Source: a virus
Taxonomy: Duplodnaviria > Heunggongvirae > Uroviricota > Caudoviricetes
Reading direction: 5' to 3' (one strand)
IMG/VR virus record: IMGVR_UViG_2563366825_000008
Length of the DNA: 6,528 nucleotides
How positions within the stretch are numbered: the first letter of the stretch is position 1; every line of letters begins with the position of its first letter. Positions 1-6,528 of the stretch are shown piece after piece. The translations under genes were made by a program, and so were the position numbers. The notes beneath the pieces were generated by a model. The model had not been told where the DNA came from, ran no database searches, and worked only from the letters and a program-made list of their open reading frames with translations.

Positions 1-642
1 CCCTGCGTGAATATCTCCGGTGAGCCAGAGGATTATTTCCGGATGTCGCCGGAGGACTGGCTGCAGGCAGAAATGCAGGGTGAGATTGTGGCGCTGGTCC
101 ACAGCCACCCCGGTGGTCTGCCCTGGCTGAGTGAGGCTGACCGGCGGCTGCAGGTGCAGAGTGATTTGCCGTGGTTGCTGGTCTGCCGGGGGGCGATTCA
201 TAAGTTCCGCTGTGTGCCGCATCTCACCGGGCGGCGCTTTGAGCACGGGGTGACGGACTGTTACACGCTGTTCCGGGATGCTTATCATCTGGCGGGGATT
301 GAGATGCCGGATTTTCATCGCGAGGATGACTGGTGGCGTCACGGTCAGAATCTCTATCTGGATAATCTGGAGGCCACAGGGCTGTATCAGGTGCCGTTGT
401 CAGCGGCGCAGCCGGGCGATGTGCTGCTGTGCTGTTTTGGTTCATCGGTGCCGAATCATGCCGCCATTTACTGCGGCGACGGCGAGCTGTTGCACCATAT
501 TCCTGAACAACTGAGCAAACGAGAGAGGTATACAGACAAATGGCAGCGACGCACACACTCCCTCTGGCGTCACCGGGCATGGCGCGCATCTGCCTTTACG
601 GGGATTTGCAACGATTTGGCCGCCGCATCGACCTTCGTGTGA
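1..642 (+). CDS. K: Tail tip assembly protein K, 5'-truncated by the window edge; JAB/MPN (JAMM) metallopeptidase-like domain followed by NlpC/P60 cysteine peptidase-like domain
   Basis: Frame 1 is open from nt 1 (translation begins PCVNISGEPEDYF...) to TGA at 640-642. The Met at nt 7 in the ORF track is internal, not the true start. JAMM-type motif HSHPGGLPWLSEAD (H-x-H-x7-S-x2-D) is encoded at nt 100-141. A candidate NlpC/P60 catalytic Cys lies in GVTDCYTLF (codon 259-261), with downstream His in PNHAAIY (codon 457-459) and LLHHIPE. The product is recognised as lambda gpK-like from memory. Confidence 0.88.
   Translation, partial: PCVNISGEPEDYFRMSPEDWLQAEMQGEIVALVHSHPGGLPWLSEADRRLQVQSDLPWLLVCRGAIHKFRCVPHLTGRRFEHGVTDCYTLFRDAYHLAGIEMPDFHREDDWWRHGQNLYLDNLEATGLYQVPLSAAQPGDVLLCCFGSSVPNHAAIYCGDGELLHHIPEQLSKRERYTDKWQRRTHSLWRHRAWRASAFTGICNDLAAASTFV
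521..528 (+). promoter_or_regulatory. Candidate Shine-Dalgarno (GAGAGAGG) for gene I, lying inside the 3' end of K
   Basis: Purine-rich GAGAGAGG sits 11 nt upstream of the I start codon at 540. The spacing is on the long side. Confidence 0.35.
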
Positions 643-1211
643 AAACGGGGGCTGAAGCCATCCGCGCACTGGCCACACAGCTCCCGATGTTTCGTCAGAA
701 ACTGAGCGACGGCTGGTATCAGGTACGGATTGCCGGGCGGGACGTCAGCACGTCCGGGTTAACGGCGCAGTTACATGAGACTCTGCCTGATGGCGCTGTG
801 ATTCATATTGTTCCCAGAGTCGCCGGGGCCAAGTCAGGTGGCGTATTCCAGATTGTCCTGGGGGCTGCCGCCATTGCCGGATCATTCTTTACCGCCGGAG
901 CCACCCTTGCAGCATGGGGGGCAGCCATTGGGGCCGGTGGTATGACCGGCATCCTGTTTTCTCTCGGTGCCAGTATGGTGCTCGGTGGTGTGGCGCAGAT
1001 GCTGGCACCTAAAGCCAGAACTCCCCGTACACAGACAACGGATAACGGCAAACAGAACACCTATTTCTCCTCCCTGGATAACATGGTTGCCCAGGGTAAT
1101 GTTCTGCCGGTTCTGTACGGTGAAATGCGCGTGGGGTCACGCGTGGTTTCTCAGGAGATCAGCACGGCAGACGAAGGGGATGGTGGTCAGGTTGTGGTGA
1201 TTGGTCGCTGA
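540..1211 (+). CDS. I: Tail tip assembly protein I (223 aa); ubiquitin-like/beta-grasp N-terminal part ending in Gly-Gly, followed by a Gly/Ala-rich hydrophobic segment
   Basis: ATG at 540 to TGA at 1209-1211. The translation MAATHTLPLASPGMARICLYGDLQRFGRRIDLRVKTGAEAIRALATQLP... is recognised as lambda gpI-like. It overlaps the K 3' end by 103 nt in a different frame. Residues about 100-157 (nt 837-1010) form a GxxxG/AxxxA-rich hydrophobic stretch (GGVFQIVLGAAAIAGSFFTAGATLAAWGAAIGAGGMTGILFSLGASMVLGGVAQMLAP). Confidence 0.92.
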   Translation: MAATHTLPLASPGMARICLYGDLQRFGRRIDLRVKTGAEAIRALATQLPMFRQKLSDGWYQVRIAGRDVSTSGLTAQLHETLPDGAVIHIVPRVAGAKSGGVFQIVLGAAAIAGSFFTAGATLAAWGAAIGAGGMTGILFSLGASMVLGGVAQMLAPKARTPRTQTTDNGKQNTYFSSLDNMVAQGNVLPVLYGEMRVGSRVVSQEISTADEGDGGQVVVIGR

Positions 1212-1271: not shown

Positions 1272-4200
1272 ATGGGTAAAGGCAGCAGTAAGGGGCATAC
1301 CCCGCGCGAAGCGAAGGACAACCTGAAGTCCACGCAGCTGCTGAGTGTGATCGATGCCATCAGCGAAGGGCCGGTTGAAGGTCCGGTGGATGGATTAAAA
1401 AGCGTACTGCTGAACAGTACGCCGGTGCTGGACAGTGAGGGGAATACCAATATATCCGGCGTCACGGTGGTGTTCCGGGCCGGTGAGCAGGAGCAGACAC
1501 CGCCGGAGGGATTTGAATCCTCCGGCTCCGAGACGGTGCTCGGTACAGAAGTGAAATATGACACGCCGATCACCCGGACCATCACGTCGGCAAACATTGA
1601 CCGTCTGCGTTTTACTTTCGGCGTGCAGGCACTGGTGGAAACCACCTCAAAGGGGGACAGGAATCCATCGGAAGTCCGCCTGCTGGTTCAGATACAACGT
1701 AACGGTGGCTGGGTGACGGAAAAAGACATCACCATTAAGGGTAAAACCACTTCACAGTATCTGGCCTCGGTGGTGGTGGATAACCTGCCGCCGCGCCCGT
1801 TCAGTATCCGGATGCGCAGGATGACGCCGGACAGCACCACAGACCAGCTGCAGAACAAAACGCTCTGGTCGTCATACACCGAAATTATCGATGTGAAACA
1901 GTGCTACCCGAACACGGCACTGGTCGGCGTGCAGGTGGACTCGGAGCAGTTCGGCAGCCAGCAGGTGAGCCGTAATTATCATCTGCGCGGGCGTATTCTG
2001 CAGGTGCCGTCGAATTATACCCCGCAGACGCGGCAATACAGCGGTATCTGGGACGGAACGTTTAAACCGGCATACAGCAACAACATGGCCTGGTGTCTGT
2101 GGGATATGCTGACCCATCCGCGCTACGGCATGGGGAAACGTCTTGGTGCGGCGGATGTGGATAAATGGGCGTTGTATGTTATCGGCCAGTACTGCGACCA
2201 GTCAGTGCCGGACGGCTTTGGCGGCACGGAGCCGCGCATCACCTGTAATGCGTACCTGACCACACAGCGCAAGGCGTGGGATGTGCTCAGTGATTTCTGC
2301 TCGGCGATGCGCTGTATGCCGGTATGGAACGGGCAGACGCTGACGTTCGTGCAGGACCGACCATCAGATAAGGTGTGGACCTATAACCGCAGTAATGTGG
2401 TGATGCCGGATGATGGCGCGCCGTTCCGCTACAGCTTCAGCGCCCTGAAGGACCGCCATAATGCCGTTGAGGTGAACTGGATTGACCCGAACAACGGCTG
2501 GGAGACGGCGACAGAGCTTGTTGAAGATACGCAGGCCATTGCCCGTTACGGTCGTAATGTCACGAAGATGGATGCCTTTGGCTGTACCAGCCGGGGGCAG
2601 GCACACCGCGCCGGGCTGTGGCTGATTAAAACTGAACTGCTGGAGACGCAGACCGTGGATTTCAGCGTGGGTGCTGAAGGGCTTCGCCATGTACCGGGCG
2701 ATGTCATTGAAATCTGCGATGATGACTATGCCGGTATCAGCACCGGTGGTCGCGTGCTGGCGGTGAACAGCCAGACCCGGACGCTGACGCTCGACCGTGA
2801 AATCACGCTGCCATCCTCCGGTACCACGCTGATAAGCCTGGTTGACGGAAGTGGTAATCCGGTCAGCGTGGAGGTTCAGTCCGTCACCGACGGACTTAAG
2901 GTGAAAGTGAACCGGGTTCCTGATGGCGTTGCAGAATACAGTGTGTGGGGGCTGAAGCTGCCGACGTTGCGTCAGCGCCTGTTCCGCTGTGTGAGTATCC
3001 GTGAGAACGATGACGGCACGTATGCCATCACTGCCGTGCAGCATGTACTGGAAAAAGAAGCCATCGTGGATAACGGGGCGCACTTTGACGGCGACCAGAG
3101 CAGCACGGTGAATGGTGTCACGCCGCCAGCGGTGCAGCACCTGACCGCCGAAGTCACCGCAGACAGCGGGGAATATCAGGTGCTGGCGCGCTGGGACACG
3201 CCGAAGGTGGTGAAGGGCGTGAGCTTCCTGCTCCGTCTGACCGTAACAGCGGATGACGGCAGTGAGCGGCTGGTCAGCACGGCCCGGACGACGGAAACCA
3301 CATACCGCTTCACGCAACTGGCGCTGGGGAACTACAGGCTGACAGTCCGGGCGGTAAATGCGTGGGGGCAGCAGGGCGATCCGGCGTCGGTATCGTTCCG
3401 GATTGCCGCACCGGCAGCACCGTCGAGGATTGAGCTGACGCCGGGCTATTTTCAGATAACCGCCACGCCGCATCTTGCCGTTTATGACCCGACGGTACAG
3501 TTTGAGTTCTGGTTCTCGGAAAAACGGATTGCTGATATCAGGCAGGTTGAAACCACAGCCCGCTATCTTGGCACGGCGCTGTACTGGATAGCCGCCAGTA
3601 TCAATATCAAACCGGGCCATGATTATTATTTTTACGTTCGCAGTGTGAACACCGTTGGCAAATCGGCATTCGTGGAGGCTGTTGGTCAGCCGAGTGATGA
3701 TGCATCCGGCTATCTGGATTTTTTCAAAGGCGAGATAGGGAAAACCCATCTGGCTCAGGAGCTGTGGACGCAGATTGATAACGGTCAGCTTGCGCCTGAC
3801 CTGGCTGAAATCAGGACGTCCATTACGGATGTCAGCAATGAAATCACGCAGACCGTCAATAAGAAACTGGAAGACCAGAGTGCGGCAATTCAGCAGATAC
3901 AGAAGGTTCAGGTTGATACAAATAATAACCTGAACAGCATGTGGGCTGTGAAGCTGCAGCAGATGCAGGACGGACGCCTTTATATCGCGGGTATTGGTGC
4001 CGGTATTGAGAACACCCCTGACGGCATGCAGAGTCAGGTGCTGCTGGCGGCGGACAGGATTGCGATGGTTAATCCTGCGAATGGCAACACAAAACCGATG
4101 TTTGTTGGTCAGGGCGATCAGATATTCATGAACGACGTGTTCCTGAAACGCCTGACGGCCCCCACCATTACCAGCGGTGGAAATCCACCGGCATTTTCCC

Positions 4201-4751
4201 TGACACCGGACGGAAAGCTGACTGCTAAAAATGCGGATATCAGTGGCAGTGTGAATGCGAACTCCGGGACGCTCAACAACGTCACGATTAATGAGAACTG
4301 TCAGATTAAGGGGAAACTGTCAGCCAATCAGATTGAAGGCGATATTGTCAAAACAGTGGGTAAGGCTTTCCCGCGGGACTCCCGGGCACCGGAGCGGTGG
4401 CCATCAGGGACCATTACCGTCAGGATTTATGACGATCAGCCTTTTGACAGGCAAATTGTTATTCCAGCGGTGGCATTCTGCGGCGCTAAACATGAGCGGG
4501 AGAATAACGATATTTATTCGTCATGCCGCCTGATAGTGAAGAAAAATGGTGCTGAAATTTATAACCGTACCGCGCTGGATAATACGCTGATTTACAGTGG
4601 TGTTATTGATATGCCAGCTGGTCACGGCCACATGACGCTGGAGTTTTCGGTGTCAGCATGGCTGGTAAATGACTGGTATCCCACAGCAAGTATCAGCGAT
4701 TTGCTGGTTGTGGTGATGAAGAAAGCCACCGCAGGCATCAGTATCAGCTGA
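1272..4751 (+). CDS. J: Central tail fibre / host specificity protein J (1159 aa), tail tip protein with FN3-like internal modules and a variant C-terminal receptor-binding region
   Basis: ATG at 1272 to TGA at 4749-4751, with a good SD. The N-terminus [42 protein letters not shown]... and most of the first ~800 residues are recognised as lambda gpJ-like. The conserved stretch [60 protein letters not shown] is present. The C-terminal ~150 aa differ from my recollection of lambda J. Confidence 0.95.
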
Positions 4752-4768
4752 ATTTTATAACCCATATA

Positions 4769-4795
4769 CGGGCGCCAGAAATGGCGCCTTTTTTA
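4769..4795 (+). terminator. Rho-independent terminator downstream of J
   Basis: Stem GGCGCCA (4771-4777), loop GAAA, stem TGGCGCC (4782-4788), followed directly by TTTTTTATT. On the minus strand the hairpin is not followed by a U-run, so it is + strand specific. Confidence 0.7.
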
Positions 4796-4807
4796 TTGCA
4801 GAAAAGC

Positions 4808-4813
4808 GAGAGG
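4808..4813 (+). promoter_or_regulatory. Shine-Dalgarno (GAGAGG) for lom
   Basis: GAGAGG lies 5 nt upstream of the ATG at 4819. Confidence 0.6.
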
Positions 4814-4818
4814 TAATT

Positions 4819-5418
4819 ATGCGTAAAGTTTGTGCAGCCATTTTGTCCGCAGCCATCTGTCTGGCCGTATCCGGTGCGCCTGCATGGGCGTCTGAGCAGC
4901 AGGCCACACTGAGCGCAGGGTATCTTCATGCCCGTACGAACGCTCCCGGCAGCGATGATCTGAACGGGATTAACGTGAAATACCGTTATGAGTTTACGGA
5001 CACGCTGGGGCTGATTACGTCATTCAGTTATGCCAACGCTGAAGATGAGCAAAAAACGCATTACAGCGATACCCGCTGGCATGAAGATTCCGTGCGTAAC
5101 CGCTGGTTCAGCGTGATGGCGGGGCCGTCTGTGCGCGTGAATGAATGGTTCAGCGCGTATGCGATGGCGGGTATGGCTTACAGCCGTGTTTCGACTTTCT
5201 CCGGAGATTATATCCGCGTAACTGACAACAAGGGGAAAACGCACGATGTGCTGACCGGAAGTGATGACGGTCGCCACAGCAACACGTCTCTGGCGTGGGG
5301 GGCTGGCGTGCAGTTTAACCCGACCGAATCCGTGGCCATTGATATTGCTTATGAAGGCTCCGGCAGTGGTGACTGGCGCACTGACGGTTTCATCGTGGGT
5401 GTCGGTTATAAATTCTGA
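4819..5418 (+). CDS. lom: Lom-like outer membrane protein (Ail/Lom/PagC/OmpX family 8-stranded beta-barrel), 199 aa with N-terminal signal peptide
   Basis: ATG at 4819 to TGA at 5416-5418. The N-terminus [24 protein letters not shown]|SEQQ looks like a Sec signal peptide with an AxA cleavage site. The C-terminus ...[28 protein letters not shown] ends in an aromatic residue (OMP beta-signal) and matches my recollection of the lambda Lom C-terminus. The position immediately after J is as in lambda. Confidence 0.9.
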
Positions 5419-5444
5419 TTAGCCAGGTAACACAGTGTTATGAC

Positions 5445-5471
5445 AGCCCGCCGGTTCAGGCGGGCTTTTTT
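5445..5471 (+). terminator. Rho-independent terminator downstream of lom
   Basis: Stem AGCCCGCC (5445-5452), loop GGTTCA, stem GGCGGGCT (5459-5466), then a T-run to 5471. Confidence 0.75.
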
Positions 5472-5482
5472 GTGGGGGGAAT

Positions 5483-6528
5483 ATGGCAGTAAAGATTTCA
5501 GGTGTACTGAAAGACGGCACAGGAAAACCGGTGCAGAACTGCACAATCCAGCTGAAAGCTAAACGTAACAGTACCACGGTGGTGGTGAACACGCTGGCAT
5601 CTGAAAATCCGGATGAAGCCGGGCGTTACAGCATGGACGTTGAGTACGGTCAGTACAGCGTTATTCTGTTGGTGGAAGGGTTCCCGCCGTCACATGCCGG
5701 GACCATCACCGTGTATGAAGATTCCCGACCCGGTACGCTGAATGATTTTCTCGGTGCCATGACGGAGGATGATGCCCGTCCGGAGGCTCTGCGCCGTTTT
5801 GAGCTGATGGTGGAAGAGGTGGCGCGTAACGCGTCCGCAGTGGCACAGAACACGGCAGCCGCAAAGAAGTCAGCCAGCGATGCCGGCACATCTGCCCGTG
5901 AGGCGGCAACCCATGCGACTGATGCTGCAGACTCAGCACGCGCAGCCAGCTCGTCAGCCGGACAGGCCGCGTCGTCGGCTCAGTCAGCGTCTTCCAGCGC
6001 AGGAACGGCATCAGCAAAGGCCACTGAAGCATTAAAAAGTGCTGCCGCTGCAGAGTCCTCAAAAAGCGCGGCAGCTACCAGTGCCAGTGCCGCGAAAACG
6101 TCTGAAACGAATGCTGCAGCGTCACAACAATCAGCAGCCACTTCTGCATCCACCGCGACTACGAAAGCGTCAGAAGCTGCCATCTCAGCCCGGGATGCGT
6201 CGGCTTCAAAAGAGGCGGCAAAATCATCAGAAACGAACGCATCCTCGAGCGCCAGTAGCGCAGCTTCCTCGGCAACGGCGGCAGCAAATTCCGCGAAGGC
6301 GGCAAAAACGTCCGAGACGAACGCCAGGTCTTCTGAGACGGCAGCGGGACAGAGCGCCTCAGCTGCGGCAGGCTCAAAAACAGCGGCTGCGTCGTCTGCC
6401 AGTGCCGCGTCAACAAGTGCCGGGCAGGCCTCAGCCAGTGCCACCGCCGCCGGAAAATCGGCAGAAAGCGCCGCATCATCCGCTTCAACAGCCACAACGA
6501 AGGCTGGCGAAGCCACTGAACAGGCCAG
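5483..6528 (+). CDS. stf: Side tail fibre protein Stf, N-terminal part; 3'-truncated by the window edge and therefore absent from the ORF track
   Basis: ATG at 5483, preceded by a G-rich SD (GGGGGGA, 5474-5480). Frame 2 is open through the end of the window (about 348 codons). The translation MAVKISGVLKDGTGKPVQNCTIQLKAKRNSTTVVVNTLASENPDEAGRYSMDVEYGQYSVILLVEGFPPSHAGTITVYEDSRPGTLNDFLGAMTEDDARPEALRRFELMVEEVARNAS... is recognised as lambda Stf (orf-401)-like, followed by an Ala/Ser/Thr-rich low-complexity shaft region. Confidence 0.85.
   Translation, partial: MAVKISGVLKDGTGKPVQNCTIQLKAKRNSTTVVVNTLASENPDEAGRYSMDVEYGQYSVILLVEGFPPSHAGTITVYEDSRPGTLNDFLGAMTEDDARPEALRRFELMVEEVARNASAVAQNTAAAKKSASDAGTSAREAATHATDAADSARAASSSAGQAASSAQSASSSAGTASAKATEALKSAAAAESSKSAAATSASAAKTSETNAAASQQSAATSASTATTKASEAAISARDASASKEAAKSSETNASSSASSAASSATAAANSAKAAKTSETNARSSETAAGQSASAAAGSKTAAASSASAASTSAGQASASATAAGKSAESAASSASTATTKAGEATEQA
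6089..6329 (+). repeat. Degenerate in-frame repeats inside stf encoding A-A-K-[ST]-S-E-T-N-A motifs within an Ala/Ser-rich tract
   Basis: Three related ~30-nt units: GCCGCGAAAACGTCTGAAACGAATGCT (6089-), GCGGCAAAATCATCAGAAACGAACGCA (6215-) and GCGGCAAAAACGTCCGAGACGAACGCC (6299-), each encoding AAK(T/S)SETNA. Confidence 0.55.

Follow-up and report, generated by a model that had tools for sequence, protein, structure and literature searches.

The 5' part of a lambda-like side tail fibre gene encodes an Ala/Ser heptad coiled coil, and the long open reading frames antisense to it are very probably not genes

Positions 5483-6528 of the 6528-nucleotide stretch of caudovirus DNA analysed here (the window; IMG/VR record IMGVR_UViG_2563366825_000008) are, with a probability of about 95%, the first 348 codons of stf, a side tail fibre gene from a lambda-like prophage whose host is Escherichia coli or a close relative; they encode an Ala/Ser heptad coiled coil, and the open reading frames (ORFs) antisense to it are not genes. 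The gene is ordinary and well characterised, and everything found here is already in the literature.

Results and discussion

Genomic context of stf

The window is the whole of contig KE136669.1 (6528 bp, draft assembly GCA_000407805.1), so that what the initial annotation called the window edge is a true contig end. Genes on the same strand are ordered K-I-J-lom-stf, as in lambda and E. coli UMNK88. K (NlpC/P60 family), I and J (1159 aa) show 97%, 99% and 84% identity, respectively, to their lambda counterparts, while lom (Ail/Lom family) shows only 45%. KE136669.1 was the only contig found to encode this J, and no sequence downstream of the stf fragment was recovered. The start of stf and the elements just before it are:

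5445-5475 (+): terminator-like hairpin and T-run, 3' of lom and just before the stf ribosome-binding region; the hairpin itself (5445-5466) has an 8-bp stem with seven G-C pairs, a 6-nt loop and the tail TTTTTGTGGG
5474-5479 (+): GGGGGG, stf ribosome-binding region, read from the sequence
5483-6528 (+): 5' part of stf, 348 complete codons, open to the contig end

A search of the window against Rfam revealed no RNA family, and a search of both strands between 4700 and 6528 gave no sigma-70-like promoter.

Identity of the reading frame

The ATG at 5483 is the sole in-frame start after the upstream stop at 5441. On translation the frame proved open for 348 codons, with no stop between 5483 and the contig end, as the initial annotation had claimed; it had also correctly noted that stf is missing from the ORF list, which is because the frame runs off the contig end. 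Residues 1-134 match the Pfam family 'Prophage tail fibre N-terminal' (PF08400) over the full profile (positions 1-134 of 134; E = 2e-72, 241.9 bits against a gathering cut-off of 26.6). Lambda orf-401 aligns with the translated product over all 348 residues without a gap (80% identity), and in 44 phage records genes annotated as encoding side tail fibres match the region at 95-98% nucleotide identity. The counterpart in UMNK88 (97% identity) has 1035 codons and is followed by tfaQ and pinQ. Gene order, PF08400, the orf-401 alignment and a structural match of the N-terminal domain thus uphold the identification as stf.

The N-terminal part of the protein comprises two elements:

5483-5755 (+): StfN collar domain, residues 1-91, a beta-sandwich predicted to attach the fibre to the tail; PDB match, AF2 model, limits taken from Ur-lambda (PMC12617516)
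5756-5785 (+): flexible linker, residues 92-101; limits by homology to Ur-lambda gpStf

Residues 1-94 match the 94-residue chain 'Tail fiber protein' of PDB entries 9e7m and 9mgh, the Ur-lambda collar domain (E = 1.6e-52). An AF2 monomer model places beta-sandwich strands at residues 2-77 (pLDDT about 83), and confidence falls below 50 at residues 92-98, in the linker. In Ur-lambda, residues 1-91 of gpStf form the collar and residues 92-101 a linker, and residues 102-393 make up a trimeric proximal coiled coil; four such trimeric fibres are present, and together their twelve N-terminal domains encircle the tail at the gpV/gpM junction (PMC12617516). By analogy, StfN (residues 1-91) of the window would join such a twelve-copy collar at that junction.

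Lambda Stf (gpStf in Ur-lambda; orf-401 plus orf-314 in lambda PaPa; P03764) lies after J and lom, as does the gene in the window, and the two have in common the StfN collar (PDB 9e7m), the linker, the Ala/Ser heptad coil and AAKTSETNA motifs. Their sequences diverge more after residue about 285. The comparison is of the proximal part only, since the distal half, the receptor-binding domain and the PaPa frameshift site fall outside the window; hinge, Pf2 repeats, receptor-binding domain and tfa are present in relatives of 97-98% identity, for example UMNK88 (1035 aa plus tfaQ), and in 48 of the 58 complete IMG/VR relatives.

Truncation at the contig end

Assembly collapse between co-resident lambdoid prophages is the likeliest cause of the truncation, because contig breaks inside the shaft are very common in draft assemblies. 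Eighteen of 76 IMG/VR loci run off the contig end inside stf, and 'partial' PF08400 fragments (113-235 aa), numbering in the thousands and grouped into hundreds of clusters, were retrieved by a protein search. Most of the window is contained in 3860 of 5426 complete E. coli genomes, at a median of three places per genome and up to 15. On this reading stf would be cut only where the draft contig happens to stop.

Laboratory lambda provides a precedent for a defective gene. Its PaPa frameshift follows '...DETNRKA' at about residue 395 of orf-401, which corresponds to about residue 500 in the long-shaft class, roughly 450 nt past the contig end; the initial annotation was therefore right to place that region beyond the window. 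The gene in the window might likewise be a broken remnant (frameshifted, interrupted by an insertion sequence or recombined), with the contig ending at the disruption. Ten of the 58 close relatives with a stop in view miss the canonical C-terminus (NYIVRLA; lengths 388-1257 aa), and in two complete genomes an IS2 lies in the J region of the locus. However, the other 48 relatives reach that C-terminus (942-1176 aa), the 348 codons present carry no defect, and breaks in the shaft, being common in drafts, fit the collapse of a sequence present at a median of three places per genome. A broken remnant thus has a small though real chance of being correct, and assembly collapse is preferred.

The Ala/Ser heptad shaft

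Beyond the linker the sequence becomes regular and continues so to the end of the contig:

5798-6528 (+): proximal coiled-coil shaft, residues 106-348 and beyond, about 35 A-x-x-S-A-x-x heptads without a break, cut by the contig end

From residue 121 on, Ala makes up 39%, Ser 25% and Thr 11% of residues, as expected from the initial description of an Ala/Ser/Thr-rich shaft; these three comprise 75% of the shaft, and Leu, Ile and Val are nearly absent. The heptad register does not shift once from residue 106 to the contig end. Of the 34 heptads counted from residue 113, 32 have Ala at position a (the other two have Val), 27 have Ser at d and 25 have Ala at e. Self-identity of residues 111-348 reached z = 9 at a lag of 7 and z = 6-8 at all multiples of seven up to 70, whereas at other lags it was at or below expectation. 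UMNK88 keeps the same register unbroken over residues 106-462 (51 heptads).

Two further descriptions of the region, 'GC-rich' and 'repetitive', hold in part. GC content is 59-61% compared with 56% elsewhere in the window, a modest difference that parts of J equal; the striking feature of composition in the stf region is the second codon position, which is 80% GC. The protein is repetitive in its heptad period, but Tandem Repeats Finder detected no tandem repeat in the DNA between 5400 and 6528.

AAK(T/S)SETNA copies and variation in shaft length

A nine-residue motif occurs three times in the shaft:

6089-6115 (+): AAKTSETNA, copy 1, residues 203-211, from the motif count
6215-6241 (+): AAKSSETNA, copy 2, residues 245-253, left end-point of a 16-heptad deletion in loci L078, L070 and L074
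6299-6325 (+): AAKTSETNA, copy 3, residues 273-281, from the motif count

The copies are spaced by six and four heptads and stand in constant register, A-K-T-S-E-T-N occupying positions a to g; in full-length relatives the motif recurs at residues 357-365 (copy 4), nine residues beyond the contig end. A plain count of repeated 9-mers was not significant, as 25% of heptad-preserving shuffles reached three copies. When 9-mers with at least five residues other than Ala or Ser were counted, three copies were reached in none of 500 shuffles that kept the composition of each heptad position, and the AAK(T/S)SETNA copies are therefore real internal duplications. The shaft had initially been called modular: the duplications are genuine, but they are embedded in a continuous heptad coiled coil rather than forming a set of modules.

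Shaft length was compared among 76 IMG/VR loci, lambda, UMNK88, ev099 and a few GTDB loci. The IMG/VR and GTDB loci were used in place of a homologue search with residues 1-134, which returned almost only short partial fragments. GTDB matches outside the Enterobacteriaceae were rejected as relatives, being mostly lambda DNA contamination.

In 65 of 68 loci, LMVEEV (residue 108) and the KGIVQL hinge are 358 aa apart. In lambda this distance is 253 aa, so that the proximal coil is shorter by 105 aa (15 heptads) than in relatives of the window's type. In L078 it is 246 aa, shorter by 112 aa (16 heptads), and L070 and L074 share this deletion; L079 lacks one heptad. The single exception to the whole-heptad rule is L018, from which 3 aa are missing. 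Shaft classes of 35, 36 and 51 heptads were seen. Total Stf length in intact relatives spans 942-1176 aa; most length variation is therefore in the distal part.

The 112-aa deletion joins copy 2 to copy 4 ('...KEAAKSSETNA|KASET...'), which share GAAACGAACGC at the DNA level. The cross-over point differs between loci, as the left side of the junction is copy 2 in L078 while in L070 the AAKT part is already that of copy 4, which suggests that the deletion arose in more than one event. Recombination and length variation, anticipated from the repeats in the window, were thus seen when repeat copies were compared among related prophages, as whole-heptad length classes and a junction within copies 2 and 4. 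The AAK(T/S)SETNA heptads, as internal duplications with about 11-14 nt of exact identity, act as cross-over points, and unequal recombination between them adds or removes whole heptads while keeping the register of the coil. It is doubtful that these heptads are maintained as built-in cross-over sites, with length switching in whole-heptad steps tuning the reach of the fibre tip through O-antigen or capsule layers that differ in thickness.

Antisense ORFs

Three ORFs on the minus strand of the stf region are listed exactly as initially reported:

5980-6516 (-): 178 aa, counterpart of lambda orf206b and member of phrog_560; judged non-coding
5706-6062 (-): 118 aa; judged non-coding, no family match
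6159-6497 (-): 112 aa, in the same frame as 5706-6062; judged non-coding

The sense codons of the shaft are mostly GCN, TCN, ACN, AGC and AAR. A stop in the antisense frame read across N3, N1 and N2 needs a codon ending in T or C before Tyr, or one ending in T before His or Gln, and such pairs are rare here. The stop at 5980-5982 is one of them (GCT-CAG, Ala-Gln), and from 5983 to the contig end the frame is stop-free. A sense strand dominated by GCN, TCN, ACN and AGC nearly lacks TTA, CTA and TCA in two of the three antisense frames, which therefore stay open automatically.

This was assessed by permuting synonymous codons 2000 times among the positions of each amino acid. The longest stretch without a stop in the frame of the 178-aa ORF was 181 codons compared with a shuffle mean of 200 (61% of shuffles equalled or exceeded the observed run), and three stops were observed compared with a mean of 3.3. 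In the frame shared by the 118- and 112-aa ORFs, the longest run was 122 codons against 95 ± 28 (18% of shuffles equal or longer), and the stop count was marginally low (5 compared with 9.8; 2.3% of shuffles at or below the observed value). As the shuffles match the observed runs, protein sequence and codon usage suffice to explain the antisense ORFs. Among 53 unique homologues, the 118-/112-aa frame showed 15 synonymous and 80 nonsynonymous changes and was interrupted by a stop in 39; this frame is not conserved.

The ORF at 5980-6516 has a history in databases. In the lambda reference record orf206b (lambdap90, NP_040603.1; 20147-20767, minus strand) occupies the same antisense frame of stf, and its stop is equivalent to that at 5980. 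Both match the same PHROG, phrog_560 of 'unknown function' (E = 1.9e-86 for the 178-aa ORF, 1.7e-59 for orf206b). Lambda orf206b starts at ATG, whereas the window counterpart has only GTG before the contig end, and in long-shaft relatives the opening spans 262-445 codons, with varying starts; no sign of expression was found for any of these. In the record of phage ev099, which is 98.3% identical, three antisense 'hypothetical proteins' replace the first 455 stf codons, and the annotated 'tail fiber' CDS starts in-frame at stf codon 456 (position 5366 of locus L001); the stf frame of ev099 is nevertheless open from codon 1 for 722 codons. One of its antisense products (RefSeq YP_009909922.1) falls into one cluster with 47 further 'hypothetical proteins' of E. 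coli and Shigella. On KE136669.1 itself, a gene caller predicted 5980-6528 (minus strand) as a gene. The concern that such ORFs could be taken for genes has thus already been borne out in lambda, in ev099 and on this contig. An exact-sequence look-up in a protein collection found neither lambda orf206b nor the 178-aa ORF.

Could the orf206b counterpart be a real gene overlapping stf in antisense? Apart from its annotation in lambda and ev099 and its strong phrog_560 match, other features of the frame would favour this: none of the 53 unique homologues has a stop in it over stf codons 168-250, its 3' stop falls at stf codon 167 in nearly all loci, and its ratio of synonymous to nonsynonymous changes (55/40) resembles that of stf (66/36). 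However, a frame this open is entirely to be expected given the amino-acid sequence of Stf, and the 55/40 pattern is forced by the wobble position that the two frames share, which makes them inseparable by this measure. The 5' end is not conserved: depending on the locus the frame stays open for anything from 83 to 445 codons, its first start falls anywhere from stf codon 268 to 590, and in most loci there is no ATG. Most of the frame is removed by the natural deletions of 15 and 16 heptads. No promoter-like site was detected between 4700 and 6528 on either strand, neither the 5980-6516 nor the 5706-6062 product matches Pfam, and in a CRISPRi screen of lambda orf206b was scored nonessential, like all its neighbours (PMC10695390). 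An overlapping gene is very improbable, and less likely than adaptive switching of shaft length. The initial view of the antisense ORFs as by-products of composition is the one retained, since they also arise in synonymous shuffles and begin at no conserved position; artefacts of this kind are known.

Architecture of the fibre

By homology the Ala/Ser region is the known alpha-helical coiled coil of Stf and of EHEC prophage fibres ('PCoil'). The homologous PCoil domain was found by experiment to be alpha-helical and trimeric, with cooperative and reversible melting, and its length differences are multiples of seven (PMC3368898); in cryo-electron tomography (cryo-ET) the proximal fibre of Ur-lambda appears as a rigid rod (PMC12617516). 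The AF2 monomer model of the window's protein has one helix over residues 101-281, past which pLDDT falls below 50, where the alignment rows (all at most 235 aa) end. It is hardly credible that the Ala/Ser/Thr-rich stretch is instead an intrinsically disordered spacer of low complexity: its composition (75% Ala, Ser and Thr; almost no Leu, Ile or Val) and an AF2 confidence that is moderate and collapses after residue 281 would suit one, but a spacer would not maintain strict register over about 35 heptads (51 in relatives), natural indels measure 7, 105 and 112 aa, the homologous PCoil is helical and trimeric, the Ur-lambda fibre is a rod, and AF2 confidence drops just where the alignment rows stop.

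The PfN-PCoil proteins of EHEC prophages (EPclA-D, collagen-like tail fibre proteins; Ghosh et al. 2012, PMC3368898) resemble the window's product in having a PF08400 domain followed by Ala/Ser-rich, Leu/Ile/Val-poor heptads, and their coils vary in length by multiples of seven, as in relatives of this stf. They differ in that the EHEC coil is short (88-116 aa) and leads into collagen triple helices, whereas the coil in the window is at least 243 aa long (357 aa in relatives) and in relatives leads to a lambda-type hinge and Pf2 region.

By analogy with these systems, the shaft of the window is probably three-stranded. It would form a parallel alpha-helical coiled coil with a core of small residues, Ala at a and Ser at d. 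In complete relatives 51 heptads would measure about 53 nm at 0.148 nm per residue; lambda has 36 heptads. Side fibres of Ur-lambda bind OmpC and speed up adsorption (PMC12617516). A shaft of this kind would keep the receptor-binding tip off the tail, so that the fibre would meet the cell surface ahead of the central J fibre.

Conclusions

Draft E. coli contigs routinely break in the stf shaft, and the 'partial' PF08400 fragments are assembly artefacts, not pseudogenes. A coiled coil of small residues, encoded by GCN, TCN and ACN codons, has given rise to long antisense ORFs in reference annotations (lambda orf206b, RefSeq ev099 gp24, phrog_560 and dozens of 'hypothetical proteins' of E. coli and Shigella). 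A gene caller can then cut off the true N-terminus of stf, as in ev099, where the gene is annotated from codon 456 only. The whole-heptad shaft classes may interest those who engineer chimeric lambda Stf fibres.

Annotation of stf in related sequences

In phage ev099 (LR597635.1), whose locus is 98.3% identical to the window, three antisense hypothetical proteins (3937-5360, -) were deposited in place of stf codons 1-455, and the CDS named 'Phage tail fiber protein' (5366-6169, +) starts at an internal in-frame codon of stf. The same three hypothetical proteins are present in the RefSeq copy, NC_049953. Among partial Stf fragments in NCBI that carry PF08400, the N-terminal domain of Stf, some are labelled 'short-chain fatty acid transporter, partial' or 'peptidase S74, partial' (protein-search matches P0016, P0036, P0041 and P0031). 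These names look like propagated misannotations.

Contigs in GTDB carry Stf sequences with 86 to 92% identity to the window (L086-L093, L095, L096, L098, L100, L101, L103, L104, L107 and others). Their assembly names include Leeuwenhoekiella, Pseudomonas, Desulfosporosinus, Kitasatospora, Neobacillus and Vibrio; some of the contigs are about 48.4 kb long, and coverage is very low. The product of L086, the sole such GTDB locus to be translated, is the lambda-like 401-aa orf-401, the 5' part of lambda PaPa stf. The low-coverage contigs are almost certainly lambda DNA that contaminates the assemblies, rather than relatives.

In the 97% identical prophage of E. coli UMNK88 (positions 14590-15853 of locus L002), stf-tfaQ lies at the Qin locus (ydfK, ynfT, ydfJ), and next after it comes pinQ, which encodes an invertase. 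This raises the possibility that some relatives carry, or once carried, an invertible segment at the fibre tip.

An ORF antisense to J and the start of gene I

The strand opposite J also carries a 461-aa ORF (window 2364-3749, -), which is read in the codon-aligned frame and greatly exceeds the ORFs antisense to stf in length. A Pfam search with it gave no significant match (best E = 0.019, below the cut-off). When J is divided into windows of 1044 nt, this antisense frame stays open for a mean of 259 codons; the probable cause is the rarity of TTA, CTA and TCA among the sense codons. This ORF is likely to be one more pseudo-ORF.

Gene I has two candidate starts, and the choice between them is ambiguous (window 540-1211 and 639-1211, +). 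With the ATG at 540 the product has 223 aa, as in the lambda annotation, and is 99% identical to lambda I; the start at 639 gives 190 aa and was chosen by the gene call on the window contig and by PGAP in UMNK88.

Divergence of J and Lom from lambda

The features of the J-lom-stf region are as follows.

3672-4751, +: diverged part of J (residues about 801-1159)
4770-4799, +: strong terminator-like hairpin, 3' of J
4819-5418, +: lom
5445-5475, +: strong terminator-like hairpin, 5' of stf

Strong terminator-like hairpins thus flank lom on both sides, an arrangement that fits a 'moron' which would be expressed separately within the late operon. Lom is only 45% identical to its lambda counterpart.

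As far as residue 800, J shares 95 to 100% identity with its lambda counterpart; beyond this point identity is 36%, with a 28-aa insertion, at residues 801-900 and 35 to 51% in the C-terminal receptor-binding domain (residues 1001-1159). The receptor of the central fibre may be other than LamB, or a LamB variant.
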